Below, in pieces: positions 1,622-20,558 of a stretch of 64,000 bases of DNA (position 1 is its first letter; each line of letters starts with the position of its first letter). Both the position numbers and the translations under genes were made by a program. Source of the DNA: an uncultured Bacteroidia bacterium (GTDB lineage: Bacteria > Bacteroidota > Bacteroidia > Bacteroidales > CAJPTX01); the NCBI GenBank assembly GCA_965240855.1, contig CBDEMG010000038.1, positions 18,226 to 82,225 on the forward strand, read 5' to 3'. Below the pieces are notes generated by a model. The model saw nothing but the letters and a program-made list of their open reading frames with translations, was not told where the DNA came from and searched no databases.

Positions 1622-1632
1622 GACTTAAAGCA

Positions 1633-1640
1633 TAACTTTG
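1633..1640 (+). promoter_or_regulatory. Bacteroidota -7 promoter box (TAACTTTG = TAnnTTTG)
   Basis: Exact match to the TAnnTTTG consensus, ~33 nt upstream of the ATG at 1673. Confidence 0.35.
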
Positions 1641-1672
1641 TAAGCATCTAATTTTTAAGAAAATTCGTACCG

Positions 1673-2278: not shown

Positions 2279-2348
2279 CGAATATTTAGCGCCCTCCCCC
2301 CTTTATACCCACTATACAAAAATAGAGAAACAAAACTGGCACTAAGCA

Positions 2349-3443
2349 ATGTCCACACTAGAAATAGCGAGTAAGCAGGCGCAAATACGTCCGCCCCATG
2401 TCCTACTCATACGGCTTAGTGCACTTGGCGATGTAGTGATGCTCCTACCCGTAGTAAAAGCTCTACGCGAGACATATCCCGAAATCGCAATCACGATCCT
2501 TTCATCACCCTTTGTACGTCCACTCTTTGAAGCTCTACACGAAGTCCGTTTCGTCGCAGCAGATACTCGCCACAAACACAAGGGTATTGTAGGGATTTGG
2601 CGCTTGGCAACAGCGCTTCGGCAAGAACATTTTACCCATATTGCCGATACGCACAGTGTATTACGAACTTGGCTACTACGTTTTTTCCTACGCCTACTCT
2701 CCCTTTTTCAGCCCTATAAACTTGCAGCAATAGACAAAGGTCGCAAAGAGAAAAAAGCGCTCACGCGTCCTACAGACAAAAGACTTATCCCCTTGGAACA
2801 CTCTGTAAAACGCTATGCAGACGTATTATCACACCTCGGGTATCCTCTCCACATCCCCTATCTACTCGGAGGACTCCCAGATCTTCCGCTCCCCTCCCCA
2901 CTCCTTACACACTTCGAGGCGACTCGGCTTCGTGTAGGCATTGCTCCCTTTGCTAAGCACCGCGGCAAGATATACGACCTAGATCGAATGCGGCTACTTA
3001 TCGACCGACTTGAACGAAACGGAATTCTGGTTTTTCTCTTCGGATCGCAAGGCAAAGAAGCTGAGCTACTGCAACAATGGGCAACTTCTCGCAATATTAT
3101 TGCATTACCAACTTATCAACTTAATCTCCTGGAAGAGATCGCTGTGATACGCCACCTTGATTTGATGCTAACCATGGATTCTGCCAATATGCACCTAGCC
3201 TCGTGGGCTGGAACACGCACACTCTCCATCTGGGGCGCTACACATCGCTTTGCTGGGTTTTATGGTTGGGGACAATCGGAGAACCTAGCGGTGGAAAAAG
3301 AGGAACTTTCGTGTCGCCCTTGCTCTGTATATGGCAATTCGCCATGTATGCGGGGCGATTACGCATGTCTCAATATCTCGGTAGAGGAACTCTACAAACG
3401 GATCTTACTCGAACTCCCCACATCGCAGACCACTAAATCGTAA
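2349..3443 (+). CDS. Glycosyltransferase family 9 (LPS heptosyltransferase-like)
   Basis: N-terminus ILLIRLSALGDVVMLLPVVKALRETYP is the typical GT9 motif. Length is 364 aa. Confidence 0.8.
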   Translation: MSTLEIASKQAQIRPPHVLLIRLSALGDVVMLLPVVKALRETYPEIAITILSSPFVRPLFEALHEVRFVAADTRHKHKGIVGIWRLATALRQEHFTHIADTHSVLRTWLLRFFLRLLSLFQPYKLAAIDKGRKEKKALTRPTDKRLIPLEHSVKRYADVLSHLGYPLHIPYLLGGLPDLPLPSPLLTHFEATRLRVGIAPFAKHRGKIYDLDRMRLLIDRLERNGILVFLFGSQGKEAELLQQWATSRNIIALPTYQLNLLEEIAVIRHLDLMLTMDSANMHLASWAGTRTLSIWGATHRFAGFYGWGQSENLAVEKEELSCRPCSVYGNSPCMRGDYACLNISVEELYKRILLELPTSQTTKS

Positions 3444-3457
3444 AAAACGCGAGCAGT

Positions 3458-4240
3458 ATGTACAATGTGCGTCACCTAGGAAACCATTCTACTCTCCCAC
3501 AAAAATACGACCCTACAATACTCGAAGCAATTCCGCGCCTCAACGCTATAGAAGCAGAAGGTTACGATGTTTGGCACGCCTATGAAATCTGTTGTCTGTG
3601 TGAGAATGGACTACCTGCCACAGGTATCCTAAAAATGCGGTATTCTCGCTCGAGTCATTGGATAGTAGAGAGTAAATCACTCAAACTTTACTTATACTCC
3701 CTTACAACACACTGTTGCGGCGAAACTCCTGCACAAGCACTTCTGCAATTACAAGAAATCGTAGCCGCAGACCTCTCACAACTTCTCCAAACCGAGGTTC
3801 ACTGCAAGATTCACACTGCCTACAACTTAAATGAAGATTGGCTAGCAGCATATCCTCTTCTCGAGACGTTGCACGAATTGCCTCAAACCTCAACACTACA
3901 AGTGGCCTCTCACTTATTAGGGTCGTTATGTCCCGTAACGCAACAACCCGACTGGGGAACGTTCGTACTCCAACTAAGAGGCGAACACCTACCTACACGC
4001 CAAGAACTTCTTGCACTACTACTCTCCAAACGCGGGAATCTGGGATTTCATGAAGAAATTACCGACCAACTTTACAACACTTTGCAAGAGAGATACGCTC
4101 CTACACATCTTTTCGTTACTTGCTTATACACACGACGCGGAGGAATAGATATTTGTCCCGTACGAGCCAGCGAACTCCGTATTATACCCGAGCATTTCGT
4201 TCATGAGGCACTCCTACCACCACCATCATTTCGTCGTTAG
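3458..4240 (+). CDS. queF: NADPH-dependent 7-cyano-7-deazaguanine (preQ0) reductase, two-domain type
   Basis: QueF motif ESKSLKLYL and catalytic-Cys motif LCPVTQQPDWG. At 260 aa it is comparable to E. coli-type QueF. Confidence 0.85.
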   Translation: MYNVRHLGNHSTLPQKYDPTILEAIPRLNAIEAEGYDVWHAYEICCLCENGLPATGILKMRYSRSSHWIVESKSLKLYLYSLTTHCCGETPAQALLQLQEIVAADLSQLLQTEVHCKIHTAYNLNEDWLAAYPLLETLHELPQTSTLQVASHLLGSLCPVTQQPDWGTFVLQLRGEHLPTRQELLALLLSKRGNLGFHEEITDQLYNTLQERYAPTHLFVTCLYTRRGGIDICPVRASELRIIPEHFVHEALLPPPSFRR

Positions 4241-7200
4241 AGTCTCTCTTACTCTTGCATTCCTTTGTTTTATATCAATTTTACAGACTTGGGCTCAACA
4301 TCGTATCAATATCGATTCTATCGCACGAGCAATCAATACACAGTTTGGCGATTGCAGCCGTTCTATCCCTCTAACCACCAAAGAGCTCGTACTTGACGAT
4401 ACGCCTATCCTTCCTTCCTCCTTGCGTATCGTACGTTGTACACTCCCAGCAAATCAGCAACCGAAACTATTGTTAGATAGTACCGCGACCCATCTTTATA
4501 TCGATGCGCCATTTGCTACCGAGCGGGATACACTCTGGATAGAATACCGCAAACTCCCTCGTAAAACTTCCGAACAATTCTCCATCTACGAACTATTAGA
4601 CTCAGTAAGCCCTTCTGAAAAGCCTCGTTGGAAACAAATACAAGAACAACAAACCTCTTCGACTCCCAGTGCTCAATGGCTTGCACCTCTCACTCTAAAA
4701 GGCTATGCTGAACGAGAAGCGACAATAGGCGAAAGTGTACAAGCACCCTTTGCTGGACGTATGCACCTCGAATTGGAGGGAGTCCTCGAATCAAATCTTC
4801 GTATACAAGGCGAACTCTCCGATCAATCATTGCCTTTCCAACCCGATGGGACTACGACACAGATCTCTGCACTTGATCGTATCTACCTCGGCGTCTCCGA
4901 CTCCCTCTGGAAAGTAGAAGCTGGCGATATCACTATCGGGAGTGCAAATCATTTTCTACACTTTCAAACTCCGATACAGGGACTGCGCTACCAATACCAG
5001 AGCCTATACAAGCATCGCGATTCCCTCCTCTTCGACCTCGCTGCAGGGATAACCAAAGGCGAATATGCAGAGATTGCTCTGCAAGGCATTGAGGCTATAC
5101 AAGGTCCCTATCGGATCTATCCGAATGCTACCTATCTACAAGTTGCCGCGATAGCTGGCTCAGAGCATGTCTACCTTAACGGTATACTCCTCTCGCGAGG
5201 GTACGATAAAGACTATACGATCGACTACAACCTCGGGGAGATCTATTTTACTATCCGTCAACCTATCCATGCAAGCTCACGTATCCTTGTGAAATACGAA
5301 AAGGCCTCGAAACTATACACTCGCTATCTCTTTCATTCCAAAGCTAAGGCAAGACTTCACAATGGGTGGTTACTTGATGTTCAAAGCTATATTGCACACG
5401 ACGATCGAAGTTCGCTAGCTCTCACCGAAAATAAAACAGAAGCCCTCGAACAACTCTCTCGCTTGCCTAGCAGCGACTCTTTATTGCAGTATATTGCTCC
5501 CCCAGAGCAAATTGATGGCAGAAAACGGAGCGGCTACTTATTAGTTGATACTTTGATCGACAAGCGATCCTATTCTATTTTTCGGTATGTAGAAGCCGGT
5601 AAATACGACTCGGTATATAACCCCTATTTCCATTACAACCCTTCGAGCGGTAATTATATTCAAATGCAAGCCGCTAACAACGAACTGATATATGTATGGC
5701 AAGCTCCTCAGAATGGCAAGAGCATCGGTAATTACAGTATTGGGCAACAACTAAAGCCCCCGAGCACTCACCAACTCGTACAAGCCACTCTTGGCTACAA
5801 TACCTCGGCCTCGCGAACCCAAGTAACATTCGCTTTGAGTCATCAAAATAGCAATACACTAAACCTCTCGCAAAAACAACACACTGGGCTAGCAGCAGAA
5901 CTCTATCACGAGAACCGGTTATTTTCGCTCGGTAGTCTCACACTTTGGGTAGGAGGAGAATCTCGTATTGTACTGAAAGATTTCCGCCCTGCTCAGAATT
6001 TTCTTGATTTCAATTTCCTACGCAACTGGGGGCTAGAACATGGGCTCGCAGCAATAAATTGGGGCGACGGCGCGCTTTGGTTTGCACTGAAACACAAAAT
6101 GGGGCATTCACAACTCGGAGCCAAAACCTTCGTAACACAACAGCACAAAGGGCTAGCACTCGAACTACAACAACAATACCGATGGCAAAATATCTATTAT
6201 AAAACGAATATTAGTGCTCGCCAACTCCGAACCGATTCGCTGCGACGTTGGACAGGGCAACTAACTAGCGAGTTAGCCTACCAATGGCAGAAATGGCGAC
6301 CAGCACTTTTCATCGAAGGCGAACTTCAACACAGTAAGCAAGATAACACCATCAAGAGTAATGACTACCGATGGTTTCGTACGGGAGCAAAATTGCACTC
6401 TAGCGATTCGGCTCTGTATTCCTTTGCAAGCGAGCATACCTACCGCTACGATGCAGCAACACTCCTACCAACCCTACAATCAGAGCGTCAGACGTTAGAA
6501 CAAACTCTACAAAGCACTCTTAACCTTCAACACTGGGGCACATATTCTGCACACATCAACTATCAATATCAATCTGCCTTGCATCTTCATACAAAAACTC
6601 GTAGCACTACCAATACTCTCCTTACCCAAATTTCTAGCGCTCTCGCTTTTTGGAAAGAGCGTATCCGTTGTCGCCTCGTGCAAGAGCTCTCTACCGAACA
6701 AACGCCAGAGTGGCAACAACGCTTTATCCGAGTCCCTGATGGGCAAGGGCAATACCGCTGGATAGATGCAAATGGTGATGGGCAACAACAACTCGAAGAG
6801 TTTGTACCTGCAGCCTTTCGAGATCAAGGACAATACGTCCTTCAACTTACTCCCACAAATAAAACGCATACTACCAAAAGTAGCAAGTATCAACTTTCCC
6901 TGAACATCTCTGCACGAGAGAGGCTACAGGCTATCGATTCCTCTACCGTTTGGTGGCAACGCTGGGATCTGGAAGTTAATGCCCAAACAGAGCAAAAATT
7001 AGAAAACGCCCCGTTGTACAAATCCTTACTCCCCATTCACTGGCAACCTCACACAGAAGGACTAAGACAGAGCTTCCATACAACCCTATGGCTCAACAAA
7101 GATCACGCACCTCTTACTTATTTTCTTAGTGCAACATACAACCAGCAAATACAAAACCTCTCACAAGGCAAAAACACACTCTTGGATCTACAATACAGGG

Positions 7201-7827: not shown

Positions 7828-10800
7828 CTAATAATCCTCTGTTTCCTCTTCCAAGGCTTCCTTTTCAAACTTCGCCTCCACAGTTATTGCATAGCCAGGC
7901 ATTGAGAATTGAAACTCGGAGTCACTTAGTTTGAGATAATTAATCTTTCCCTTTTTCTTCGAACCACTCTTATAGATTAGAAGACTGGAAAGACGGTAAT
8001 CTTCCTCTGGTTCTATCTCTAACATTACCCAAGTATCCTTTTCCTGTCCCTCATTCCCATTGACAATCTCAATTGTGCCATGTTCTGTGGGTTGGATTGT
8101 AATAGGATATGTTGTGGGTTCTGCTAGCAAAGGATTTCCATCGTCTTCTATTTTATCATCATCTCCCTCATCTATCCTATCCTCGTTTATCTTATCATCA
8201 TTATCATTCGCATCCTCATTCTCCTCATCTCCATTTTTTTCATCTTTCTCAAAAATCACTTGTACTTCTACCGCGCAGGCCGGCATCTTAAAACGATACT
8301 CGGTATCGCTTACCTTATTCGTGCTAACTGTTACACTCTCCGCACCACTTTTGAAGACCTTAAGACTCGCGAAATGATAATCGGCGTCTGGCGTGAGAGT
8401 TAAGGTTACCTGCGTATCGGCTTCTAACTCGCCTTCTTTATCTGCTTCTAACGTACCATTGGAAGGAGACTGTAACGAAAGTAAATAGGTTGTTGGAACT
8501 TGGGGGTGCGATTGCTGTGTTTTGTTCTTCTCAAACACCACTTTCACCGTCACATCATGCGCGGGCATCGTGAAATGATAATCGGTATCGCTGTCCTTGG
8601 TAGTAGCTATCGTAACCTTCGAATTGGTGAGCTTATACACTTTGAACGTTGCAAGGTGATAGTTCTCGTTTGGTATTAATGATAACCGTACCTCGGTATT
8701 AGACTTCACTTCGTCTTTCTTGGATATCTCTACTTTGCCATTAGGGGTGTCTTCCAATTGAAGCCAATATGTCCCTTGAGGCACATCCTTTTCAAACTTC
8801 ACCTCCACCGTTACGTCGTGGGCAGGCATAGTGAAACGATAGTCCGTGTCGTTATCCTTAGTGGTAACGACTGCGACTCCAGGATTATTGAGCTTATAAA
8901 CTTTGAAAAGCGCGAGACGGCAGTTTTCGTTGGGTATTAACGATAACTTAACCTCCGTATTGACTGGCACATTACCTTCATTAGATATCTCAACTCTACC
9001 ATTAGAGGTAGATTTCAATTCTAACCGATAAGACTTTGAGGCTTGCGGATTATCCTCTCCAGGTGTTTGTGATGACTCTTTCCCAAAAGTTGCCTGTACG
9101 GTTACCGAATAGTCTGGCATTACGAAACTATACTCATTGTCTCCGACCTTAGTCGTGCTAACAATTACTCCCTCCTCTCCTCTCTTATAGACTTTGAGGT
9201 TTTCGAGGTGATAAGAATCGTCAGGGGTTAATCTTAAAAATATCTCTGTTTCGCCAGCATCTCCTACAGATTTAAAAATATCTACTTTCCCGTGTGGCGA
9301 AGGTTTTAGGGAGATTGATGGCGGTTGCGAGGTTGCATTCTTTTTCTCAAATACCACCTTCACCATTACGTCGTGGGCAGGCATAGTAAAACGATACATT
9401 GTTTCACTATCCTCGGTGGTTGCAATACTTAAACTTTCATCACCGCTCTTGTATACTTTGAGAATTGAGAGGTTGTAATCTTTCTCGGGCGCAACAGTTA
9501 TAGTTACCTGCGTAGCAGACTTCACATCTTTTGTCTCTGAGCACTTTACCGAACCGTGGGCTGTAGGGGCAAGTGCAACAGAATGTTTGGTAAATTGGTA
9601 GGTTGGGATGGGTAATTGTGTCTCACCTCCTTCCACAACAAAAGGATATTTACTAAAACTCTTAAGTGTGTGATCTTTCAGTTCCGCTAAAACAAAGGCA
9701 GATTTAGTCCCCTTGGGTAGGTTAACAACTTTTCGGAGCGTGATCTCAATACTCTTACCCGGTTCAATGATATAGGTGCGGAGATGTTCAAATTCTCCAG
9801 GAAAACCTTTAGGATCTAGGAAATAAATCAACCAGTTATCAATATATGCACCAGCGTTGCCCTTGGCGCTGAGCCTAAAGCGTGCAGTATAGTCAGATCC
9901 CGCCTTTACATGTTCTGTTTTTTCGATGAGCTGAATATCAGGCAAATCTAACTCATAATGTGCTGCAGGAGTAATAGATATACTCGCTATAGGAAGTTTA
10001 CAGATCTTACCCTCACTATGCTCGTTTGCAAAGAAGTGGAGATATTTTTTCGTCCTACTCTTAGGACCCATAATCTGGGTGCGGAACATCGTCACTTCTC
10101 CAGGAGCTATATCTACTAGCTCATTGATTGCGCACTCGTCTAGCGATGAGGGGGGCATGGGCGATTCCGAGTCGCTATAAACAGCTTGTATATAGGATTT
10201 GTATTGTTGCGATCCCTTACTCCCCACACTCCATTCTACTGCATTGTAATTGTTCTCGTGAAGAGTGGTGGTGCTCTTCCATGTAACTTCCAACTGCGGA
10301 GTTTGGGTAACTTCCCTCACTTGTAAGGTTCGATGGGAAGCGGCTATCTTGATTTGTAGCCTTTTCCTATCCCTAGAGGTTACGGGATAGTACGTTTTGT
10401 TATCCTCCTCGTAAATATACGGACGGAGAGTATAGAGACCATTTGACACACCCGAGCAGTTGAACCCTTCACATAAGAGTTTATTGATACCCGGTTTTAG
10501 TAGTGTAGCCCCTTTCGATAGAAACCGGCTTACTTCCTCCCCTTTTTCATTGATAAAAGCAAATGCAAGACGTATAAAGCGAGACTCCGTGGAAGAGGTA
10601 AATACGCCACCAAGCCCGACCTCTCTGAAAGGAGTAGTAACTAACTCTGGTTCCAGATCCCACGAATGTACCAATAAGTCCAAGTAGGTGTAGTTATGGA
10701 CGTCTGGAGTGCCGCTATATTGCACTGCAGGGCAAATCCCAATAATTGCATCCTGATAGAAACTATAATTCCCATTATTGGATTCTAATTTATGCAATCT

Positions 10801-11793
10801 AAAGTATCCATCACATTGTCCGTTCCATCCCCAGTTTACATGGAAGTAACCATTTCCATCATATCCATCTATGACAAAGGTGTGTCCAGCTCCTTGTAAT
10901 GGCACACCACTGTAAATCACAGGACGCCGCGCTTGTAACTCCGATATAAGGAGCTGTTCCCACACTAATGAAGAATAGTCGCTAGCATGTACTAGCTGAA
11001 GCGATGGTGCATAAGCAAAATAAGAGCGAAGTGCATTAAAAGCATCGAACGAAGAACTCGCACCCCCCGAAGCGCTATATCGCATTCTTAATGCCTTTCC
11101 GAGTTCGCGCATTAAATAAGCCACTGCTTCCTTTTCTTCTTGCGTGCCGTCGCTAGCAGGATTGTTGGGCATCTTTTTCCAATCAAAGGATTTCGTACAG
11201 AATTCGTTCTCGCCCGCTATCGTCCCTTTCCCTTGCGGAGGCCATGCATAGTAACGCATCAATTGGGCACAGGCTGTTGCCACACAACCTGTTGGGTATT
11301 TATTAGGTGTATAAAGGTTGTATGGGTACTCCTGCCCCCAGGCAAGGTTACGCAGGAGTGGAGTAACCACCTCTGCAGCATTACGGAAGTTCTGTGAGGA
11401 AGGAACGCTCCTTGTATTACGAACCTCCTTAACCCATGCCGAATATCCGTCAAGGTATTGGGCAATCTCCCTAGGCATTGCCTGGGTGGAGAAGTTATCC
11501 TGATCCGAATAAGCAAGAATTGGGGGGAGGGCGTCGTCTCCTGCCACGACCACAAATCCAGCCCCAGTCTTGTTGCCAAAGACATAGTAATCTTTCCCAT
11601 CGTTACTCCCTTTAGTGGGTAATCCAGAGCTCGTATAGAGCAGTTCAACGGGCTGAGCTCCTCTCACAAGCTCCAATTTGAAATGTTGTTGTGCGTAGCT
11701 TGCCGCTTTTTCTTGTGAAATGGGGGCAGCCCACACCCTTAGGGTACTAAAAAGTAGTAACCCAAATAGAATTAGGATAGTGTTTTTGTTCAT
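7828..11793 (-). CDS. Peptidase C10 (streptopain/PrtT-like cysteine protease) with seven C-terminal tandem beta-repeat modules
   Basis: Signal peptide MNKNTILILFGLLLFSTLRVWA (ATG at 11793). Catalytic Cys context TGCVATACAQLMRYYAWP and His context GAGHTFVIDGYDGNGYFHVNWGWNG. The C-terminal ~590 aa consists of 7 repeats, each ending ..Y(R/H/S)F(T/V/K)MP..DV.V.V.FEK. Confidence 0.85.
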   Translation of the reverse strand: MNKNTILILFGLLLFSTLRVWAAPISQEKAASYAQQHFKLELVRGAQPVELLYTSSGLPTKGSNDGKDYYVFGNKTGAGFVVVAGDDALPPILAYSDQDNFSTQAMPREIAQYLDGYSAWVKEVRNTRSVPSSQNFRNAAEVVTPLLRNLAWGQEYPYNLYTPNKYPTGCVATACAQLMRYYAWPPQGKGTIAGENEFCTKSFDWKKMPNNPASDGTQEEKEAVAYLMRELGKALRMRYSASGGASSSFDAFNALRSYFAYAPSLQLVHASDYSSLVWEQLLISELQARRPVIYSGVPLQGAGHTFVIDGYDGNGYFHVNWGWNGQCDGYFRLHKLESNNGNYSFYQDAIIGICPAVQYSGTPDVHNYTYLDLLVHSWDLEPELVTTPFREVGLGGVFTSSTESRFIRLAFAFINEKGEEVSRFLSKGATLLKPGINKLLCEGFNCSGVSNGLYTLRPYIYEEDNKTYYPVTSRDRKRLQIKIAASHRTLQVREVTQTPQLEVTWKSTTTLHENNYNAVEWSVGSKGSQQYKSYIQAVYSDSESPMPPSSLDECAINELVDIAPGEVTMFRTQIMGPKSRTKKYLHFFANEHSEGKICKLPIASISITPAAHYELDLPDIQLIEKTEHVKAGSDYTARFRLSAKGNAGAYIDNWLIYFLDPKGFPGEFEHLRTYIIEPGKSIEITLRKVVNLPKGTKSAFVLAELKDHTLKSFSKYPFVVEGGETQLPIPTYQFTKHSVALAPTAHGSVKCSETKDVKSATQVTITVAPEKDYNLSILKVYKSGDESLSIATTEDSETMYRFTMPAHDVMVKVVFEKKNATSQPPSISLKPSPHGKVDIFKSVGDAGETEIFLRLTPDDSYHLENLKVYKRGEEGVIVSTTKVGDNEYSFVMPDYSVTVQATFGKESSQTPGEDNPQASKSYRLELKSTSNGRVEISNEGNVPVNTEVKLSLIPNENCRLALFKVYKLNNPGVAVVTTKDNDTDYRFTMPAHDVTVEVKFEKDVPQGTYWLQLEDTPNGKVEISKKDEVKSNTEVRLSLIPNENYHLATFKVYKLTNSKVTIATTKDSDTDYHFTMPAHDVTVKVVFEKNKTQQSHPQVPTTYLLSLQSPSNGTLEADKEGELEADTQVTLTLTPDADYHFASLKVFKSGAESVTVSTNKVSDTEYRFKMPACAVEVQVIFEKDEKNGDEENEDANDNDDKINEDRIDEGDDDKIEDDGNPLLAEPTTYPITIQPTEHGTIEIVNGNEGQEKDTWVMLEIEPEEDYRLSSLLIYKSGSKKKGKINYLKLSDSEFQFSMPGYAITVEAKFEKEALEEETEDY
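7831..9600 (-). repeat. Seven tandem ~85-95-aa coding repeats (InlB-B-repeat/Listeria-Bacteroides-repeat-like) with an embedded D/E-rich linker (about 8130-8260)
   Basis: The motif TMPAHDVTV.V.FEK recurs at roughly 270-nt spacing. The acidic stretch is GDEENEDANDNDDKINEDRIDEGDDDKIEDDG. Confidence 0.75.
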
Positions 11794-11835
11794 GACAGTT
11801 CTGTCTTCTAATTTGCTCAAATGCCTAAAAATATT

Positions 11836-11843
11836 CAAAAATA
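11836..11843 (-). promoter_or_regulatory. Bacteroidota -7 promoter box (TATTTTTG on the minus strand)
   Basis: CAAAAATA on the plus strand, an exact TAnnTTTG match, ~43 nt upstream of the C10 protease ATG. Confidence 0.35.
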
Positions 11844-12080: not shown

Positions 12081-12235
12081 GGGCATGCCATGTCCCTTCA
12101 TAACACCCCACAGCACGGGGTTTCTACCGCCGTGCTAAAAAAGACTCGCCCCACAAGGGGGCTTAAGTAAGACCCGCTTGTCGCAAATTCCGCCCCTCTG
12201 GCGCAAGGACCGTCTGCTAAGACCGTTAGGAGCAG
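12081..12235. repeat. REP-like element, unit 2; left copy of the direct repeat flanking the Type ISP cassette
   Basis: Degenerate palindrome GGGCATGCCATGTCCC, hairpin AGCACGG-ggtttctaccg-CCGTGCT, hairpin GCCCC-acaa-GGGGC, then ..GTCTGCTAAGACC... By eye it aligns to 18741-18872 at roughly 80% identity. Confidence 0.7.
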
Positions 12236-12251
12236 TTCTCCCCTTTTGCTT

Positions 12252-12259
12252 TAAATTTG
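12252..12259 (+). promoter_or_regulatory. Bacteroidota -7 promoter box (TAAATTTG)
   Basis: Exact TAnnTTTG match, 42 nt upstream of the Type ISP ATG at 12301. Confidence 0.4.
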
Positions 12260-12300
12260 ACATATGCATGTGCAATTCGTAAGTAGCTCAGGTAAAGAAA

Positions 12301-15300
12301 ATGACTACCATCCACGAAATCTTAACGCGAGTCCGAAAAGAAGCACTCACCGAAACTGAAAAAGGGACACGATTCGAAAGGCTTATGTGTGCATGGCTCA
12401 AAACCACGCCTATGTACGCGAACCTCTTCGAGGCTGTGTGGCTCTGGCGCGAGTTCCCTGCACGCAGCGAATTCGGTGGTAAAGATACGGGGATAGATAT
12501 CGTAGCAAAGACCAACCTAGGCGAATACTGGGCAATCCAGTGTAAGTGCTATGCCGAAGATACGCACATCAATAAGCCCGAGGTCGATACCTTCCTCTCC
12601 ACCTCTAGCAAAGGGTTTACCGACCCGACAAGTGGCGCGAGCTGCTCGTTTGCACACCGTCTCTGGATTGCAACAACCTACCACTGGGGGCGCGAAGCCG
12701 AGCTCGTGATTCAAAACCAGAACCCACCCGTTACGCGCATTCAACTCGCCGATCTGGATGCCTCGCCCGTCGACTGGGGCAAACTCTGGGAAGGGCTTGA
12801 GGGCTCTGCGGCGCGTATTGCGAGAAAAGAGCTCCGCAAACACCAAATCGAAGCACTGCAAGCGGCACATGCCCACTATGCTACTGCTGATCGGGGCAAA
12901 CTCGTTATGGCATGCGGCACGGGAAAGACCTTTACCTCGCTTAAACTCGTCGAACAAGAGCTGAGTGGCCACGGGCTTGTACTCTTTCTCGTACCCAGTA
13001 TCGCACTGCTCGGTCAGTCGCTTAACGATTGGATGGGCGATGCCGAAAAGCCCCTGAAAGCCATCTGCGTCTGCTCGGATGCGCACGCCTCGCGCAAAAT
13101 GAAGCGCAATGAGGACGACGCCCCCTCCGATACCCCTGTCGACCTAGCCCTCCCTGCCTCGACGCACCCCGAAACGATAATCCGTCAGCTCGAGGCCTAC
13201 CAAAATTACGAGGGGCTTGTGGTCGTGTTTTCTACCTACCAAAGTATCGACATTGTCGCAGCGGCGCAAGTGCAACTCCTCGAAAAGAGCGAGGGTACGT
13301 ACGGGACTTTTGACTTCGTAGTATGCGACGAGGCGCATCGCACCACGGGCGTGAAAATCTCGCAAAGCGACGAGAGCAACTTCACCAAAATCCACAACAA
13401 CGAGATTATCCGCGCCTACAAACGACTCTATATGACCGCCACGCCGCGCATCTTTGGCGAGACCTCCAAAATAAAAGCCAGCAAGAACAACTATATCCTC
13501 TGTTCGATGGACGATACCTCGATTTACGGCGAGGAGTTCTATCGCGTGAACTTCGCCTATGCCGTACGCGAGGGCATCCTGACAGACTATAAAGTGCTGG
13601 TGCTGACCGTCTCGGAGGATCAGATCCCAGACGAGCTCCTTCAACAAATAAAAGAGGACGACCTGCACGAACTCAACTACGACGACACGGGGAAGCTCAT
13701 CGGGCTTATCAACGGACTCTCGAAAAAGCTCTATGGCGACCACGGCATCACTTGGCTCTCCGACCCACGACTGATGCGACGTGCACTCGCCTTCACCCAC
13801 AAAATCGGTAAGACGGACGAGCCTGGCACCTCAAAAAACATAGAAAAGGTCTTCCCACAAGTTTCGCAAACCTACAACGCGAGCCTCTCTGCGGAAGAGC
13901 AACAGCAAGTGGTGCACATCGCTACGCGCCACGTGGACGGAAGTATGGGCACTAGCGAACGGCATGCAGCCCTTGCATGGCTTGCAGAAGAAGCAGAAGA
14001 CCCACAGGAGTGCCGCATCATCTCGAACGTACGATGCCTTTCGGAGGGAGTGGATATCCCCGCCCTCGATGCTGTAATTTTCCTCTCGGCGCGCAGCTCG
14101 CAAGTAGATATCGTACAAAGCCTAGGGCGCGTGATGCGCTCGTTTCGGCGCGGGCAGCTTGGCGAAAAGAAGTATGGCTACATCATTATCCCCGTCGTTG
14201 TGCCCGAGGGTGTAAGCCCAGAGAAGGCTCTGGAGGACAACGCTTTTTCCACGGTCTGGAGTACGCTGAACGCCCTCCGTGCGCACGACGACCACTTTAA
14301 CGCCATTGTAAACTCGATTGCACTGAACCAGAACAAGTCCTCTAAAATTACCCTCGCAACCCTCGGGATGGGGCAGACGGGCGTAGGACAAACTGACCCC
14401 GTGCCAGCACGTCACGAGGCGCAGCAGATATCGCAACAGACGATTATCAGCCGACTTCACCTCAAATTTGGCGACGCACAGCAAGCCATCTACGCAAAGC
14501 TCGTTGAGAAGTGTGGCGACCGTTTCTATTGGGAGGACTGGGCTGCCTCCGTGGGCGAGATTGCAAAAAAGTACATTGCGCGCATCGAACGACTGGTTCT
14601 AAAGAAAGAGAGCGAGCTAGCCGCTGAGTTTCAACGCTTTGTAAGCACCCTGCAGCAGAACCTGAACCCGAGTATAGCACCTGAGCAGTGCATCGAGATG
14701 CTGGCGCAGCACCTCATTACGCGCCCCGTGTTCGAAGCCCTATTTACTGAATATCAGTTCGTTAGCAACAACTCGATCTCCTCCTCAATGCAGCGAATGA
14801 TTGAACTGCTGGAGCGCGAGGCCGTGAATAAGGATCTTGCCCCATTACACAATTTCTACGAATCGGTACGCGCCAATGTGGGAAATATCGATAACCTCGA
14901 GGGCAAACAGACCGTAATCAAAAATCTCTACGAGAAGTTTTTTAAGCGCGCCTTCCCCCTTACGGTCGAAAAACTGGGGACGGTCTATACTCCCATCGAG
15001 TGCGTCGATTTTATTCTCCATTCGGTCGACGATGTGTTGCGCAAAGAATTCGGTACAGCCCTGACAAACAAAGGGGTACACGTGCTCGATCCCTTTGCTG
15101 GCACGGGTACATTCATTACGCGCCTCCTGCAATCGGGGCTAATACGTCGCGAAGATATGGTGCGCAAATATCGCGAGGAGCTCCACGCCAACGAGCTTAT
15201 TCTTTTGGCATATTACATAGCCGATGTGAACATCGAGAGCGTCTTTCAGCAGCAATACAACCCCGAGGAATATATGCCCTACGACGGGATTTGCCTAACC

Positions 15301-17211
15301 GACACCTTCCAGCAAGGTGAAAATAACGAAGGCGACCTCTTCACAGAATTCTTCCGAGAGAACTCCGAAATTGTGGAGGCGCAGCGCAAGACCCCTATAC
15401 GCGTAATTGTGGGCAACCCGCCCTATTCGGTGGGGCAGAAATCGGCTAACGACAACGCGCAAAACCAAAGGTATCCAAAGCTTGAAAGGCGAATAGAGGA
15501 GACCTATGTAGCAGCATCCTCTGCAGTCAATTCTAAAAGCCTTTACGACTCCTATATTAAGGCTTTCCGCTGGGCTACCGATCGTTTGCCTGAGAACGAG
15601 GGAGGGGTAATTGCCTTTATTTCGAACGGAGCGTGGATAGACGGCAACTCGCAGGACGGCTTTCGCGCTTCGCTCCGAAAAGAATTTGACAAAATTTATG
15701 TTTACAATTTGAGGGGAAATCAACGTACAAGCGGCGAACTCTCGCGCAAAGAGGGGGGTAAAATCTTCGGAGGCGGCAGCCGTACGCCTATAGCCATAAC
15801 CATTTTAGTGCGCTATCCTGCTGAGCGGCGACTACCACAAGGGCAGATCTTCTATTACGACATTGGCGACTACCTTAGCCGCGAACAGAAACTCGCCACC
15901 ATTCGTAAGACAAAAAGCTATGTCAACCTAAAGTGGACAGAGATTACCCCCAATGCGAAGCACGACTGGATCAACCAGCGAGATGGGCTTTTCGATACCC
16001 TACTCCCCCTTGCGCCTGAAAAGAAGTATAACAAAGAGACCAAGAGTGTGTTTGTGACGAATGCAATAGGGATTGCAACAAATAGGGATGCGTGGGTCTA
16101 CGGCTTTTCTAAAGAGCAAGTAAGCGCTAATATGCAGGCGATGATTGCTTTCTATAAGGCGCAAATTGGGCAAGAGAGACCATCTATTGATGAAACAAAA
16201 ATAAGCTGGACTAGGGCGTTACGAAAAGATTTAGAAAAAGAGAAAATCCACTCGTTCGATATTTCAACATTTGTAGAAAGTTCTTATCGGCCATTCACTA
16301 AGTATGCTCTGTATAATCATCGACCTTTTATCGAATGTCCAGGTATTTTTGAACAGCTATTTCCCACGCCAAAGCATGAAAACTTGCTCATTGGAGTATG
16401 TGGAGTAGGAGCAGGAAAAGGATTCTCTACGCTTATTTTAGATAAAGTTCCTTCTCTTGATATTTTAGACAAAACTCAATGTTTCCCCCTCTACTACTAC
16501 ACCGAAAGTAAGGACACCGTAACGCACGACCTATTCGGGAAGGAGGTCGCCTCCCACTGGGAGCGGCACGATGGGGTGTCCGATTGGTTCTGGACGGAGG
16601 TGCGCTCGCGCTACGGCTATGCGCACAACCTCACGAAGGAGGATATCTTTTACTATGTCTATGGTTTGTTGCACAGCCCAGACTATCGCGCTCGTTTTGC
16701 CGACGACCTGCGTAAAAGTCTCGCACGCATCCCTATTGTAGACTCCGTAGACGATTTCATCGCCTTTAGCAAAGCGGGTCGTGCCCTTGCTGCCCTCCAC
16801 CTAAGTTATGAGGAACACGCCAACGAAGCCCTTCAAATGGGCGTTACGCTCCTCGAGCGCGACAAGGCCGATCAAGACCCTTACGACTACTACGCCGTCC
16901 AGAAACTCCGCTTCCCGAGCAAGACCGAACGTGACACCATAATCTACAATGCGCACATTGAAATCGGGAACATCCCCCTTGCGGCGTACGACTACGTAGT
17001 GAACGGCAAATCGCCCATCGAATGGGTGATGGAACGCTATGCCATCACGACAGATAGGAAGAGTGGAATCCCGAACAACCCGAACCTCTGGGCCAAAGAA
17101 CACTCCGCTCCGCGTTATATCCTCGATCTTCTCCTCTCGCTCATCTATGTGAGCGTAGAAACCAATAAAATTGTGAAAGTACTACCCAAAGTGGAATTTG
17201 AAAAAGCATAA
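12301..17211 (+). CDS. Type ISP restriction-modification enzyme (Mrr-like nuclease, SF2 helicase-like ATPase, N6-adenine methyltransferase, C-terminal specificity domain; LlaGI/LlaBIII architecture)
   Basis: 1636 aa. The nuclease core is GIDIVAK...WAIQCK. The helicase has Walker A ACGTGKT (12916-12930), DEAH (13327-13338), TATPR and QSLGRVMR. The methylase has the AdoMet motif LDPFAGTGTF and NPPY (15415-15426). The C-terminal part carries RDAWVY, YRPF and CFPLYYY motifs, which I recall from Type ISP C-terminal domains. Confidence 0.9.
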   Translation: MTTIHEILTRVRKEALTETEKGTRFERLMCAWLKTTPMYANLFEAVWLWREFPARSEFGGKDTGIDIVAKTNLGEYWAIQCKCYAEDTHINKPEVDTFLSTSSKGFTDPTSGASCSFAHRLWIATTYHWGREAELVIQNQNPPVTRIQLADLDASPVDWGKLWEGLEGSAARIARKELRKHQIEALQAAHAHYATADRGKLVMACGTGKTFTSLKLVEQELSGHGLVLFLVPSIALLGQSLNDWMGDAEKPLKAICVCSDAHASRKMKRNEDDAPSDTPVDLALPASTHPETIIRQLEAYQNYEGLVVVFSTYQSIDIVAAAQVQLLEKSEGTYGTFDFVVCDEAHRTTGVKISQSDESNFTKIHNNEIIRAYKRLYMTATPRIFGETSKIKASKNNYILCSMDDTSIYGEEFYRVNFAYAVREGILTDYKVLVLTVSEDQIPDELLQQIKEDDLHELNYDDTGKLIGLINGLSKKLYGDHGITWLSDPRLMRRALAFTHKIGKTDEPGTSKNIEKVFPQVSQTYNASLSAEEQQQVVHIATRHVDGSMGTSERHAALAWLAEEAEDPQECRIISNVRCLSEGVDIPALDAVIFLSARSSQVDIVQSLGRVMRSFRRGQLGEKKYGYIIIPVVVPEGVSPEKALEDNAFSTVWSTLNALRAHDDHFNAIVNSIALNQNKSSKITLATLGMGQTGVGQTDPVPARHEAQQISQQTIISRLHLKFGDAQQAIYAKLVEKCGDRFYWEDWAASVGEIAKKYIARIERLVLKKESELAAEFQRFVSTLQQNLNPSIAPEQCIEMLAQHLITRPVFEALFTEYQFVSNNSISSSMQRMIELLEREAVNKDLAPLHNFYESVRANVGNIDNLEGKQTVIKNLYEKFFKRAFPLTVEKLGTVYTPIECVDFILHSVDDVLRKEFGTALTNKGVHVLDPFAGTGTFITRLLQSGLIRREDMVRKYREELHANELILLAYYIADVNIESVFQQQYNPEEYMPYDGICLTDTFQQGENNEGDLFTEFFRENSEIVEAQRKTPIRVIVGNPPYSVGQKSANDNAQNQRYPKLERRIEETYVAASSAVNSKSLYDSYIKAFRWATDRLPENEGGVIAFISNGAWIDGNSQDGFRASLRKEFDKIYVYNLRGNQRTSGELSRKEGGKIFGGGSRTPIAITILVRYPAERRLPQGQIFYYDIGDYLSREQKLATIRKTKSYVNLKWTEITPNAKHDWINQRDGLFDTLLPLAPEKKYNKETKSVFVTNAIGIATNRDAWVYGFSKEQVSANMQAMIAFYKAQIGQERPSIDETKISWTRALRKDLEKEKIHSFDISTFVESSYRPFTKYALYNHRPFIECPGIFEQLFPTPKHENLLIGVCGVGAGKGFSTLILDKVPSLDILDKTQCFPLYYYTESKDTVTHDLFGKEVASHWERHDGVSDWFWTEVRSRYGYAHNLTKEDIFYYVYGLLHSPDYRARFADDLRKSLARIPIVDSVDDFIAFSKAGRALAALHLSYEEHANEALQMGVTLLERDKADQDPYDYYAVQKLRFPSKTERDTIIYNAHIEIGNIPLAAYDYVVNGKSPIEWVMERYAITTDRKSGIPNNPNLWAKEHSAPRYILDLLLSLIYVSVETNKIVKVLPKVEFEKA

Positions 17212-17216
17212 TAATA

Positions 17217-18581
17217 ATGTCAACTATCGAAGAAATTCACAAGTCGCTTTTAACATTAAAAGAAAGCCTTCCTTCATTCCGACAATATCTTAATGATACC
17301 TACAAGAATCGGATGGATGAGGGAATATGGGGGGAAGAGTTAGAATATAGCCCCAAGGGATTATTAAAAGAGCTCGTACATATCATTGTAGACACAACTA
17401 GTCTGGTCCAAAATCAAGATTACTTCATCCGTCTTTCTACTTATAACGAGAGGGAAAATGTTAGAGCTAATCTGAGCAATATAATCCATTTTTCATCTTC
17501 TCTGCAAATTGATCATTTAATATTCAACTTAAATAATCTTAAGATATTATTGCGACCATATAATCTTCGCTCAGATAAAAAGCGTATGATAGCCTTTCAA
17601 AATGTGCTTGATGAGCAAATAGGACGCTCTGAAGAACTTAAGCACCTAGAAGCAGCGATAAAAGAGCAAGAAAGTAAAATCAACCACATTGTTTCTGAAG
17701 TTTTGGCGCAATATGACGATATTTCTCAAAAACAAAAAAAGATAGTTGAGCTACTAGAAAATAGTCAGGCAATCAACAAGGCTCTTAACGCGATAAAAGA
17801 AGACTCGCATAAAATAGAAAAGGAAATTCGTTCTGCCCAGTCAGTGATTTTAAATTCAGAAGAAAAGTGTAACGAAAAAGTAGAATCTATTGCAGCAATC
17901 ATAAAGGAGGTAAATCAACATGAACAGCAGATAAAACAACAAAATGAACGCTTTGAAATATTCAATCAAACATTAGCGGAGAATGAAACTCAACAAAAAA
18001 AATATCTGGAAGAAGCTCTCAATCTTATTGAGAAGGCAAAAACAGCTTTAAGCTATACGACTTCTGTAGGGTTAGGCGCCTCTTTCGATACTCAATACAA
18101 AAATCTTACAGGCAAGTTTGGCTATAAATTGTGGATTTGGATTGTTGCTGCGGTAGTTACTATAATTGGGGTAGTGTGCATTGGTATTTGGTTAATAAAT
18201 GGTAATCACCAAGTTCAAAGCGATTCGTATATGTGGACTCGAATTGTCGGCAAGTTAAGTATGATACCATTACTTGTAACTGCCACGCTCTTTTGCGCTA
18301 AACAGTATACTAAGCAAAAAAACTTGCTCGAAGATTACGCCTATAAGCGCTCTCTTGCGCAATCTATGATAGCTTTTTCAGAAGAATTACGAGAAAAAGA
18401 TGCAGAGAAGTACCGAGAATATCTTTCCATGGCACTAACTCAAATACACCAAGATCCTCTTCGCCACAGAGTAAATCCCAATGCAAAAGTAGAGGCTAAG
18501 TCAAATTATTTAATTAACGAAAGTATTTTGAATTATATAAAACAAATTCTTGCATTGGTTCAAAAGAAAGACGAAGAATAA
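17217..18581 (+). CDS. Uncharacterised coiled-coil protein with two C-terminal transmembrane helices
   Basis: 454-aa ORF starting 5 nt after the Type ISP stop. The first ~290 aa are E/K/Q-rich heptad-like sequence. TM1 is LWIWIVAAVVTIIGVVCIGIWLI (~18127-18198) and TM2 is IVGKLSMIPLLVTATLFCA (~18243-18300), followed by a ~90-aa charged tail. The gene is strongly AT-rich compared with its neighbour. Confidence 0.75.
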   Translation: MSTIEEIHKSLLTLKESLPSFRQYLNDTYKNRMDEGIWGEELEYSPKGLLKELVHIIVDTTSLVQNQDYFIRLSTYNERENVRANLSNIIHFSSSLQIDHLIFNLNNLKILLRPYNLRSDKKRMIAFQNVLDEQIGRSEELKHLEAAIKEQESKINHIVSEVLAQYDDISQKQKKIVELLENSQAINKALNAIKEDSHKIEKEIRSAQSVILNSEEKCNEKVESIAAIIKEVNQHEQQIKQQNERFEIFNQTLAENETQQKKYLEEALNLIEKAKTALSYTTSVGLGASFDTQYKNLTGKFGYKLWIWIVAAVVTIIGVVCIGIWLINGNHQVQSDSYMWTRIVGKLSMIPLLVTATLFCAKQYTKQKNLLEDYAYKRSLAQSMIAFSEELREKDAEKYREYLSMALTQIHQDPLRHRVNPNAKVEAKSNYLINESILNYIKQILALVQKKDEE

Positions 18582-18740
18582 TTTTTACTACTGTTTGCTA
18601 ACGTTTTATTTAGAGGTAAAAATAGAATTGTTACATAACAATATCAATAATAATCCTATCAACTATATATGCAGTAGACCAAGAAGCGAATTATCATCGT
18701 ATATGTTAAGTATTGATTATAAAGCCATAAAATTTAATAA

Positions 18741-18872
18741 GGCATACCCTGTCCCTACAAACCTGCAGCACGGGGTTCCCACCGCCGTGCTAGAAATACT
18801 CGCCCCGCAAGGGGGCTTAAATAGAACCGCTTGCCGCAAGGGTGTCGTCTGCTAAGACCCCGCCTAGTGCAG
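18741..18872. repeat. REP-like element; right copy of the direct repeat flanking the Type ISP cassette
   Basis: GGCATACCCTGTCCCTACAA, hairpin AGCACGG-ggttcccaccg-CCGTGCT, hairpin GCCCC-gcaa-GGGGC, then GTCTGCTAAGACC. Same order and orientation as 12081-12235. Confidence 0.7.
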
Positions 18873-18917
18873 GGACTACAGCCCCCATCCTCTCTACAAG
18901 ACCATCGCTTCTCACTA

Positions 18918-18950
18918 TAAAAAAAGAGCGAGACTCTCGCCTCGCTCTTT
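18918..18950 (-). terminator. Rho-independent terminator of the small lipoprotein gene
   Basis: On the minus strand, AGAGCGAG-gcgagagt-CTCGCTCT is followed by TTTTTTT, 27 nt after the stop. Confidence 0.7.
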
Positions 18951-18976
18951 ATCTCTTTGTCTGTTACAAGAACAAA

Positions 18977-19420
18977 TTACTTTGTCATTGTTGCTGTAAC
19001 TTTAACTTCTTTGCCGCCCTTGTCCTTACCATCAAGAGTCAAGGTGTATTCAGCTTTCTTGTCAGCGTTTTCTTTAACTGCGAAATCAGCTTTAGTGTCT
19101 TTCTTCATACCATCCATTACATCAGCATCCAGCATGTACTTTGTGATATCAGCGCCCTTTTTAAATTCAGTTTCTTTCAAACCTAACTGTTCGCAAGTAA
19201 GCTTAACGTTGTCGCCATCAGCTACAACTTTTACAGTTACATCTGCTTGGTCTAACTTACCCTTGTAGTCACCAGCTAAATCAGAAACCTTTTCAATCTT
19301 CAGCTCCTTCTTTGGCTCTTCTTTCTTCTTGTTGTTATCTTTATTTTCGTCCTTCTTGCAAGAAGTGAAAGCAACAGTTGTTGCCAAAGCTGCGAGAGCT
19401 AAAACATAACGCAATTTCAT
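18977..19420 (-). CDS. Small lysine-rich lipoprotein, unknown function
   Basis: MKLRYVLALAALATTVAFTSC lipobox (ATG at 19420), then a K/E/D-rich linker. A terminator follows the gene. Confidence 0.7.
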   Translation of the reverse strand: MKLRYVLALAALATTVAFTSCKKDENKDNNKKKEEPKKELKIEKVSDLAGDYKGKLDQADVTVKVVADGDNVKLTCEQLGLKETEFKKGADITKYMLDADVMDGMKKDTKADFAVKENADKKAEYTLTLDGKDKGGKEVKVTATMTK

Positions 19421-19625
19421 GATCCCCAAAATTTTAATTGTTAAACTTCACACGTCAACTCTATTCTGTACACCTCGTCAGAACATCTACAAAATTACAT
19501 GTTTTTCTGAATTGTAAAAAAACTCTACTACACTATCACGGTTAAGCTTGTATAGAAAACGAATAAAAGGGACTACTATACAAGACTTTACATTTTTTAA
19601 GTCAGGAAATCCTAAAATAAACTTT

Positions 19626-20558
19626 TTAGAATCTATACGCTAACCCCAAGCCAAACATCTGACGAATCTGTAGATATGGAACAAGCTTCCCTGTCTTGTC
19701 TGGGAGTTTTTGATCGTCATCGTAAATCAACGTGAGTTGCGCACGCGCAGTGAGCACACTCGTGAGTTTGAAGTCAAGCAGCAGGTCGTAATTCACATCT
19801 ATATTTTGTGGTTTTTCCAAGTAGTTCGAAAATAATTCGAGTTTTGTTGTGAGCCCCAACATATTTTTGAAGAACGAATTCTTGTAGCCCAATTTTATAT
19901 ATCCACCGAGTTCAAACCTCATCTTCTCTCCTGATTTCACGATCGCTCCAGAGACTGGATCATACACTGCCGCTTTTACCCCGAAGGCTCCTGCATTGGC
20001 TAATTCTGGATCGCGTACATAAGTCAACCGAGCTGTTGCAGGCGAGAGCATAGCCGAAAAATGATCGTCTGGTTTAAAATCAGCACCCAACGAAAATTGT
20101 ACGTAGAGTGGTGCTGCAAAATCCGAAATAGGGTGGTCGCGATCCGGATACTTATACCCCGCCGAAAATTGTGTCTTCACCCCTAGGAGTGCACTGTAAT
20201 ACCACGCTTTCGTTGCTTGATAGCCGAACTGCGAAGCAAAGTCTATCTTATCTAAGTTCTTTATTACGCCTTGCTCGCCTTGTTTCATCACGCCATAGCC
20301 TAGCTCTAGGGTATTCTGCCACAGATTCTTACGCTTAGCATACTTCAAATCTAACAAGGCAGTTGCTTGACCTCCTAAGGTATTCTCTCCTCCTGCAACC
20401 CAATGTGTAAGAGCTACTTGGTTGAATGTTGCTGCCAGATTCCCCGAGAAGACCCAAGCACTATCCTGCGAGAGTACTATCCCCTCTGCTTGCACCGAAC
20501 TCCCCCATAAAAGCACTGTAGCAAGTGCGAGCATGACGGACAATTTTTTCTTCATCAT
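19626..20558 (-). CDS. DUF3078-like outer-membrane beta-barrel protein
   Basis: Signal peptide present. The sequence SGNLAATFNQVALTHWVAGGENT..WQNTLELGYG and the C-terminal ...GLAYRF match my recollection of DUF3078. Confidence 0.6.
   Translation of the reverse strand: MMKKKLSVMLALATVLLWGSSVQAEGIVLSQDSAWVFSGNLAATFNQVALTHWVAGGENTLGGQATALLDLKYAKRKNLWQNTLELGYGVMKQGEQGVIKNLDKIDFASQFGYQATKAWYYSALLGVKTQFSAGYKYPDRDHPISDFAAPLYVQFSLGADFKPDDHFSAMLSPATARLTYVRDPELANAGAFGVKAAVYDPVSGAIVKSGEKMRFELGGYIKLGYKNSFFKNMLGLTTKLELFSNYLEKPQNIDVNYDLLLDFKLTSVLTARAQLTLIYDDDQKLPDKTGKLVPYLQIRQMFGLGLAYRF

Follow-up and report, generated by a model that had tools for sequence, protein, structure and literature searches.

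What is encoded immediately behind the Type ISP restriction-modification (RM) gene of this Bacteroidales genome, and does it belong to the restriction system or move independently of it? The DNA analysed here, hereafter the window, is a 64,000-nucleotide (nt) stretch of contig CBDEMG010000038.1 (positions 18,226 to 82,225, forward strand; assembly GCA_965240855.1) from an uncultured Bacteroidia bacterium of the lineage CAJPTX01, and the gene in question, the target gene, lies at 17217..18581. It codes for a predicted inner-membrane protein with a coiled coil and two transmembrane (TM) helices, and we find that it is one member of a large family of portable single-gene cassettes that recur at RM operons of four types, with distant relatives in prophages. 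These contexts strongly suggest a defence role for the family; that the protein is a self-contained anti-phage membrane module, acting as a second layer behind restriction, is in our judgement the likeliest reading, with about even confidence.

The open reading frame (ORF) is confirmed on the forward strand, with an ATG start and a product of 454 amino acids (aa), and the peptide strings quoted in the original prediction are all present in its translation. That prediction drew the protein as a coiled coil of about 290 aa leading into a 2-TM hairpin and a charged tail. A Kyte-Doolittle hydropathy scan and an AlphaFold2 monomer model bear out the hairpin, the coiled coil and the cytoplasmic tail, but not the length of the coiled coil: the model (all-helical, 119-sequence alignment, mean predicted local distance difference test [pLDDT] value 82.8) has a separate bundle at aa 1-118, so the coiled coil is ~157 aa long instead of ~290. 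The gene and its parts are as follows.

17217..18581, forward strand: the target gene, coding for a coiled-coil, 2-TM inner-membrane protein (translation, homologue searches, AlphaFold2, hydropathy)
17217..17570, forward strand: aa 1-118, helical bundle at the N-terminus, which evolves fast and is the proposed sensor (AlphaFold2; pairwise identity 0.21)
17577..18047, forward strand: aa 121-277, one long heptad helix, the coiled-coil stalk (AlphaFold2 helix; 3.5-residue periodicity)
18060..18110, forward strand: aa 282-298, conserved juxtamembrane helix, motif ALSYTTSVGLxxSFDxQ (AlphaFold2, alignments)
18123..18200, forward strand: aa 303-328, TM helix 1, with invariant W308 (19-residue hydropathy peak, AlphaFold2 helix)
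18201..18230, forward strand: aa 329-338, short periplasmic loop, not conserved (no K or R in 328-340; variable in the alignment)
18231..18299, forward strand: aa 339-361, TM helix 2, with K346 (R in most members), P351 and F359 conserved (19-residue hydropathy, AlphaFold2, alignments)
18300..18470, forward strand: aa 362-418, post-TM module in the cytoplasm, which with the TM hairpin makes up the proposed effector core (pairwise identity, invariant residues)
18471..18578, forward strand: aa 419-454, variable C-terminal tail that ends in a helix (pLDDT <50 at 423-434; helix at 435-453)

The modelled bundle comprises helices at residues 2-28, 46-65, 67-73, 76-94 and 98-115, with pLDDT >93. Residues 121-280 contain no proline, are 43% E/K/Q/R/D, and have a 3.5-residue hydrophobic periodicity whose observed value was reached by none of the shuffled sequences (0/2000); from 157 helical residues at 1.5 Å each, we estimate that the modelled stalk would be ~23 nm long. 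For the stalk, PDB, Pfam and PADLOC yield generic coiled-coil matches only. The 19-residue hydropathy scan identifies exactly two hydrophobic peaks, at 309-327 (2.92) and 343-361 (1.86), with values elsewhere of 0.77 or less. The 13-residue loop between the TM helices (328-340) has no K or R, and its flanks hold three and five; this distribution of charge indicates an N-in/C-in hairpin, and thus an inner-membrane protein with both termini in the cytoplasm. In the model, a helix spanning 339-394 takes TM2 unbroken into the cytoplasm, where there is a further helix at 396-410.

The original prediction described the gene as an orphan, which did not survive a wider search. We found 271 homologues at E≤1e-3 in a word-indexed search, nearly all of them unnamed, the closest non-self hits being 54% identical and ~458 aa long. 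A profile of the C-terminal 185 residues, compared with 1.84 billion representatives, identified 835 clusters (50% identity) at E≤1e-3 and 296 at E≤1e-10, with a best E of 1e-92. Nearly all of the matched clusters are 410-460 aa in length, with the C-terminal domain beginning at about residue 240-270, and from this uniformity we conclude that the architecture is conserved throughout the family. Members are found in Prevotellaceae, Bacteroidaceae, Paludibacteraceae, Flavobacteriaceae, Cytophagales and one Melioribacteraceae metagenome-assembled genome, with distant members in prophages of Aeromonas and others. These prophage relatives match phrog_34659 and phrog_30912, with E down to 6e-71 across the C-terminal 2-TM region; neither entry has a name or function, and the window protein itself matches neither at E≤1.

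Searches for named relatives were unproductive. When scanned against Pfam, NCBIfam, PADLOC and PHROG, the window protein gives coiled-coil noise only (Rad50, SMC, JetC, DruC and tape-measure proteins), and across 103 diverse members no true family recurs in Pfam or PADLOC. Sequence searches of PDB with the C-terminal and full profiles return nothing, or coiled coils only, and Foldseek comparisons of two models with PDB reach best E values of 0.1-0.2, all to generic helical bundles. In BFVD, Foldseek identifies one unnamed 415-aa viral protein (E 5.5e-5), which is probably a phage member of this family; the remaining matches are insignificant. An exact look-up of the window protein among public contigs gave no record, and a cluster look-up for the family gave no names. 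BLAST searches with an Aeromonas-type prophage relative found no match in Escherichia coli genomes and two distant 'hypothetical protein' matches in phages. In the searched literature we found neither a description of the family nor the pattern of a portable coiled-coil/2-TM cassette at RM 3′ ends and in lysogeny modules, and it is best called a large, unnamed, new family within a known sort of system.

Conservation is distributed very unevenly along the protein. Among 119 diverse members, mean pairwise identity is 0.21 in the bundle, 0.20 in the stalk, 0.36 in the juxtamembrane helix and TM hairpin, 0.53 in the post-TM segment 362-418, and 0.14 in the final tail; within the close clade the post-TM segment reaches 0.83. 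Within the 'charged tail' of the original prediction, segment 362-418 is thus more conserved than any other part of the protein, and 419-454 is variable. The post-TM module follows the pattern QYxKQKxxxEDYxYKxxLAxSxxxFSEEL...EYL...L..I..DPLRxR, and the invariant or near-invariant positions are W308, F359, Q363, Y364, D373, Y374, Y376, K377, L380, S383, F387, Y402, D413, P414 and R416. Position 346 is always basic or nearly so (K here, R in most members), and A277, L278, G285, S287 and F290 of the juxtamembrane region are nearly invariant across the 103-119 diverse members. The window protein carries the full C-terminal signature: AL.Y.T..G.S..F, the W in TM1, R/K...P...F.A.QY in TM2, EDY.YK...L..S...F, and DP.R. 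The periplasmic loop varies in both length and sequence among aligned members. In 65 Aeromonas prophage proteins (P0279-P0346), the N-terminal 240 aa have a mean identity of 0.19 and the last 90 aa 0.69, a striking N-terminal diversification inside one genus. We infer that the pairing of a hypervariable N-terminal half with a conserved core close to the membrane represents the usual sensor-effector signature of conflict systems.

To describe the genomic contexts of the family, we gathered 145 loci besides the window through conserved peptide motifs, called genes simply as the longest ORFs, and identified neighbours through clustering, phmmer comparison with reference proteins, and Pfam; counts refer to the 52 cellular loci that have 2.5 kb or more of upstream sequence and are left after collapsing targets at 90% identity. 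An RM gene is recognised within three genes of the target in 21 of the 52, and in 15 the target starts no more than 60 nt downstream of a same-strand RM gene. Two further loci (L096 and L108) were identified as Type IIG or methylase loci, bringing those with an RM gene within three genes to at least 23 of 52; because the reference set is small, all of these RM counts are lower bounds. There are four kinds of partner: Type ISP enzymes (gaps of 5-13 nt), Type III Res (11-14 nt), Type I systems, in which the target is often placed between hsdS and hsdR, and MmeI/Eco57I Type IIG enzymes (6-29 nt).

Other defence genes are found nearby as well, including Gabija-like OLD and UvrD, Schlafen/AlbA_2, NACHT, DUF4062-AAA, AbiH and RhuM; Fic is also among the neighbours. 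The Gabija-like pair (an OLD-family ATPase/TOPRIM protein and a UvrD helicase) follows a Type III res gene and the target in one clade (L059-L066), and an ISP gene and a 35-codon ORF in another (L152-L154). The 3′ flank of ISP and Type III genes is a slot for varied defence cargo. We also observed a conserved ~714-aa protein, with no Pfam match, directly 3′ of the target in loci L006-L008, L045 and L109, which belong to the clade closest to the window protein; it is absent from the window and could be a clade-specific partner.

In the window, the partner is a complete ISP gene at 12301..17211 (forward strand), intact and coding for 1636 aa, with the Pfam domains Mrr_cat_2, ResIII, Helicase_C, ISP_coupler, N6_Mtase and Type_ISP_C in that order. 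It thus has the Mrr-type nuclease, superfamily 2 helicase, coupler, N6-adenine methylase and C-terminal target-recognition domain of a Type ISP enzyme in a single polypeptide, and it matches PADLOC REase_MTase_IIG with 2033 bits. The shared module, the junction behind it, and three RM fossils from other loci are listed here.

12197..17204, forward strand: Type ISP restriction-modification module, operon partner outside the target family (Pfam, PADLOC, match to locus L146)
17205..17216, forward strand: recombination junction and 5-nt gap (GCATAATAATA ahead of the ATG), where the alignment with L146 breaks
L009, 7918-7983: remnant of res, its last 21 codons, upstream of a solitary copy (RM fossil)
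L045, 7721-7975: last 68-85 codons of an ISP gene, behind hsdR (RM fossil)
L002-L005, 9923-10629: fused remnant of Type III mod (N-terminal part) and res (C-terminal part), downstream of the target (RM fossil)

Locus L146, a contig of an unrelated sample with different flanks, matches the window over exactly 12197-17204 (its positions 85-5089) at 93.6% nt identity, and homology stops there. The shared segment includes 104 nt 5′ of the ISP start and codes for an enzyme 95% identical to that of the window; unrelated genes come next and the target gene is absent. The end of the alignment puts the junction 7 nt short of the end of the ISP stop codon, and the sharp boundaries mark the ISP gene, too, as a mobile cassette. 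The proposal that enzyme and target had separate origins and were joined later into one operon is thus supported by the existence of this ISP module elsewhere without the target. Within the ISP gene, otherwise 0.50-0.55 G+C (GC), we also observed a low-GC patch (0.35-0.39) at 16100-16470, in the C-terminal specificity region, and ISP homologues are 52-63% identical over their last 400 aa versus 71-72% over the first 1150 aa; this composition and divergence suggest that the target-recognition domain is swapped.

The association is also loose in the wider collection. Besides L146, three other sampled ISP loci lack the target gene; two ISP relatives of 70% identity stand alone, and behind the third lie a 35-codon ORF and Gabija. 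The link between ISP enzyme and target is thus facultative, and ISP enzymes do not need the target gene. On dozens of contigs the target stands intact and solitary, and all that is left upstream of it is the final 21 codons of a Type III res gene. A further locus, L089, has both the ISP gene and the target broken. The RM contexts are interleaved on the family tree (a quick neighbour-joining distance tree), with the ISP-linked window protein nearer to Type III-linked proteins (54%) than to other ISP-linked ones (45-50%). Among 12 ISP-linked loci, ISP and target divergence are correlated (Spearman 0.78; 66 non-independent pairs), so that an ISP-target pair, once formed, is inherited jointly; the target evolves faster than its partner, with, for example, 88% (ISP) versus 62% (target) identity. 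The family behaves as a portable one-gene cassette that docks behind or inside several types of RM operon.

Such close placement raises the prospect that the protein is a guardian of restriction like PrrC, held silent by the restriction enzyme and freed to damage the membrane once an anti-restriction factor disables that enzyme. Its position between hsdS and hsdR is like that of prrC in EcoprrI (PMC12707154), the target follows the RM gene upstream at a distance of 5-14 nt, and the correlated divergence of the non-independent ISP-target pairs points the same way. However, the same N-terminal domain family is found beside RM types of four distinct mechanisms, which are intermixed on the tree, intact copies outlast deletion of the RM gene, the prophage relatives have no RM neighbour, and the closest ISP enzyme and three others do without the target; we therefore consider such a guardian unlikely. 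The resemblance to PrrC and RloC, anticodon nucleases in Type I RM loci, is one of position, as accessory genes in or at the end of an RM operon, including the hsdS-hsdR slot, and of a presumed backup role when restriction fails, as for RM guardians generally (PMC12707154). Unlike them, the target is a membrane protein in which Pfam, NCBIfam and PADLOC detect no ABC-type ATPase or anticodon-nuclease domain, and it is tied to four RM types and also occurs without RM. TgvAB of Vibrio cholerae VPI-2 (PMC12409362) is likewise an independent defence module inside an hsd cluster, but it consists of soluble DUF262/DUF1524 Type IV nucleases, whereas the target combines a coiled coil with two TM helices, and no enzyme domain was detected in it.

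The target gene has a GC of 0.352, whereas the ISP gene has 0.518 and the whole window 0.455, and only 0.5% of equal-sized windows are as AT-rich; the sharp break from the upstream gene noted in the original prediction is real, and the hand counts behind it (15/60, 25/60 and 35/60 G+C) are exactly right. Family members have GC of 0.28-0.42 and third-codon-position GC (GC3) of 0.19-0.42, in hosts with GC of 0.33-0.59 and beside partner genes with GC3 up to 0.71. Low GC is therefore a family-wide trait and not just the mark of a recent local event, and its persistence whatever the host or partner points to continual transfer or to selection.

The target ATG lies 5 nt past the ISP stop codon in an operon-like junction. 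We found no TAnnTTTG box (the Bacteroidota -7 element) in the 130 nt upstream of the target gene and none conserved upstream of RM-linked homologues, and a sigma-70 scan found nothing upstream of the target gene; no separate promoter is evident from the DNA. One further feature lies downstream.

18923..18950, both strands: bidirectional terminator-like hairpin (terminator scan, 10-12 bp stem)

This hairpin probably ends the predicted ISP and target transcript, and also that of the convergent gene at 18977..19429. With the promoter box missing and a terminator-like hairpin present, co-transcription with the ISP gene is likely. In the same flank, the spacer after the target stop codon is very AT-rich (GC 0.22-0.25) and is followed by a GC-rich island (0.56) at 18750-18880, ahead of the hairpin. 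The region 18740-18955 folds as a closed multi-stem structure (minimum free energy -67.8 kcal/mol, z = -3.0, 0/200 shuffles). The island is single copy in the window and missing from the other loci, and could represent a small RNA or repeat element that lacks annotation; an Rfam scan of 18500-19700 gave no match.

Are the prophage relatives informative about function? These distant proteins (20-30% identity, same architecture) lie either between a CI/S24 repressor and the integrase, or right after P2 gene A. The interval after P2 gene A we take to be the site of the P2 defence hotspot of Rousset et al. 2022. The interval between repressor and integrase is typical of prophage superinfection exclusion (sie) genes. 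P2-like phages do possess a defence hotspot, as an excerpt of one study states (PMC9122126). An alternative is thus that the target is a superinfection-exclusion or entry-site protein, which blocks or intercepts incoming DNA, or tethers restriction there, with no killing. It would be suitably located, as hydropathy predicts a membrane protein, and there is a reported membrane-bound nuclease that cuts phage DNA during genome injection (PMC13190303, in excerpt). However, only 10-13 residues are exposed to the periplasm and these are not conserved, conservation is concentrated on the cytoplasmic side, and no DNA-binding or nuclease domain was detected in the Pfam, NCBIfam, PADLOC and PHROG scans; the facultative RM association argues against the tether version. 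We regard an exclusion function as improbable. Among named systems of that interval, lambda RexAB and the prophage sie genes resemble the distant relatives in being membrane proteins between repressor and integrase. RexB has four TM helices. The target family differs in being a single gene of different topology, and PHROG scans detected no homology.

The layout of helices, 2-TM hairpin and cytoplasmic helical segment also recalls the SLATT proteins, as the original prediction remarked, and a divergent SLATT-type effector triggered by a nucleotide signal would have this topology. SLATT_1-6 share the hairpin flanked by cytoplasmic helices, a defence context and a proposed membrane disruption; the target differs in its far greater size and long coiled coil, and we saw no partner genes for nucleotide signalling beside it. 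Four SLATT-annotated giant-virus proteins are among the top 50 Foldseek matches in BFVD, but these are weak (E 0.5-1.2, probability 0.20-0.63, TM-score ≤0.32), and the Foldseek PDB search returned no SLATT proteins. No SLATT model is among the Pfam matches of the window protein at E≤1 or among the 25 Pfam families most often matched by the 103 diverse members (E≤0.1), and a Pfam scan of ~40 neighbours from ~30 loci found no SMODS, SLOG, TIR or cyclase; in the window itself, the neighbours are the ISP enzyme and a lipoprotein-like ORF. Homology to SLATT is thus not supported, and we consider a SLATT-type effector very unlikely.

A further comparison is with ZorA of Zorya (PMC11946911, in excerpt), which likewise pairs a membrane anchor with a coiled coil of great length in the cytoplasm and also occurs in a defence setting. 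The target lacks a MotA/ExbB-type domain and ZorB, ZorC and ZorD partners, and the scanned neighbourhoods contain no ZorB- or KwaB-like genes. PADLOC ZorA models match three of the 103 members, which we read as coiled-coil similarity, and the matches of the window protein, to JetC and DruC (residues 106-287) and weakly to LmuB (E 0.24, 11-292), all lie over the coiled-coil region; the suggested check for Zorya and Kiwa homology therefore yielded coiled-coil noise only. Three other candidates were rejected. Phage_holin_5_2 matches six of the 103 members, at best with E 0.0025 and below curated cut-offs, and leaves the window protein unmatched; a CorA-type channel is not supported, as the loop NGNHQVQSDSYMW lacks GMN and is not conserved, and CorA is not among the Foldseek PDB matches listed; and a reading of the sequence finds no Rx4-6H motif of HEPN proteins.

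Could the RM adjacency be incidental? A non-defence membrane protein, for example an envelope or stress protein, could be hitch-hiking on mobile DNA, with its proximity to RM genes arising from shared variable regions. By the reference set 31 of the 52 loci lack an RM gene, although two of these (L096 and L108) were later recognised as Type IIG or methylase, several loci adjoin housekeeping genes, and no defence model matches in PADLOC. Set against this are the same-strand gaps of 5-14 nt to RM genes, which recur in independent clades, together with insertion inside hsd operons, placement in prophage lysogeny modules, and the variable-N/conserved-C pattern typical of conflict systems; we find the hitch-hiking explanation quite improbable. 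A defence function nonetheless has several points to contend with. About half of the non-redundant loci have no recognised defence neighbour, and some members sit beside genes for PriA, gyrA, enoyl-CoA hydratase or ribonucleotide reductase. Every named member is annotated 'hypothetical protein', and profile, PADLOC, PDB and Foldseek searches gave no homology to a known pore-former or defence effector. The TM region of the AlphaFold2 monomer has moderate confidence (pLDDT 58-84), and the context fractions are rough, as they derive from a small RM reference set, a home-made gene caller and motif retrieval.

How might a self-contained anti-phage membrane module of this kind work? The protein would oligomerise through its coiled-coil stalk, and the variable N-terminal half would sense a cytoplasmic cue of infection. 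The conserved 2-TM and post-TM core would then change its oligomeric state or rearrange, and would leak ions or depolarise the membrane, so stopping phage growth and aborting the infection. In the window, the gene would be co-transcribed with the Type ISP enzyme and serve as a second layer against phages that escape restriction. The analysis shows the gene with its layout and topology, the family, its repeated linkage to RM genes, its modularity and the gradient of conservation; what we infer are the role in defence, the perturbation of the membrane, the cue that triggers it and co-transcription with the ISP gene. Precedents are found in defence genes embedded in type I loci (PMC12409362), in RM 'guardian' second layers (PMC12707154), and in TM proteins acting as suicide effectors (PMC9122126, in excerpt).

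Two other parts of the window were observed in passing. A divergently oriented gene at 7828-11838 (reverse strand) codes for a 1336-aa product with a Peptidase_C10 (streptopain-like) domain, a Spi inhibitor prodomain and six InlB-type B-repeats, a predicted large secreted cysteine protease beside the defence locus. The segment 60500-62000 ranks second in AT-richness within the window (GC 0.34-0.37) and has small reverse-strand ORFs of 122-208 aa, two of which, by inspection, start with hydrophobic signal-like segments; it may be another acquired island.

For the biology of these bacteria, the modular structure of the loci reveals that accessory defence cassettes are recombined precisely at the 3′ ends of RM genes. 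Few parts of bacterial immunity are as poorly understood as the proteins that act at the membrane, and the Bacteroidota, the dominant gut phylum, are thinly represented in current defence catalogues. If the target is a defence gene, it would add a common new one-gene system and show clearly how restriction and a membrane effector can be layered as modules, and its motif set (W308, K/R346, P351, Q363-Y364, E372-D373-Y374-x-Y376-K377 and D413-P414-x-R416) would be open to mutagenesis. More broadly, and with somewhat less than even confidence, we propose that this may be a widespread, undescribed one-gene anti-phage family in which a hypervariable cytoplasmic sensor on a coiled-coil stalk gates a 2-TM and EDYxYK module; it would be specialised at the 3′ ends of RM operons (Types I, ISP, III and IIG) and in prophage lysogeny modules, and would serve as a standard second layer across Bacteroidota, with a divergent form in Proteobacteria.

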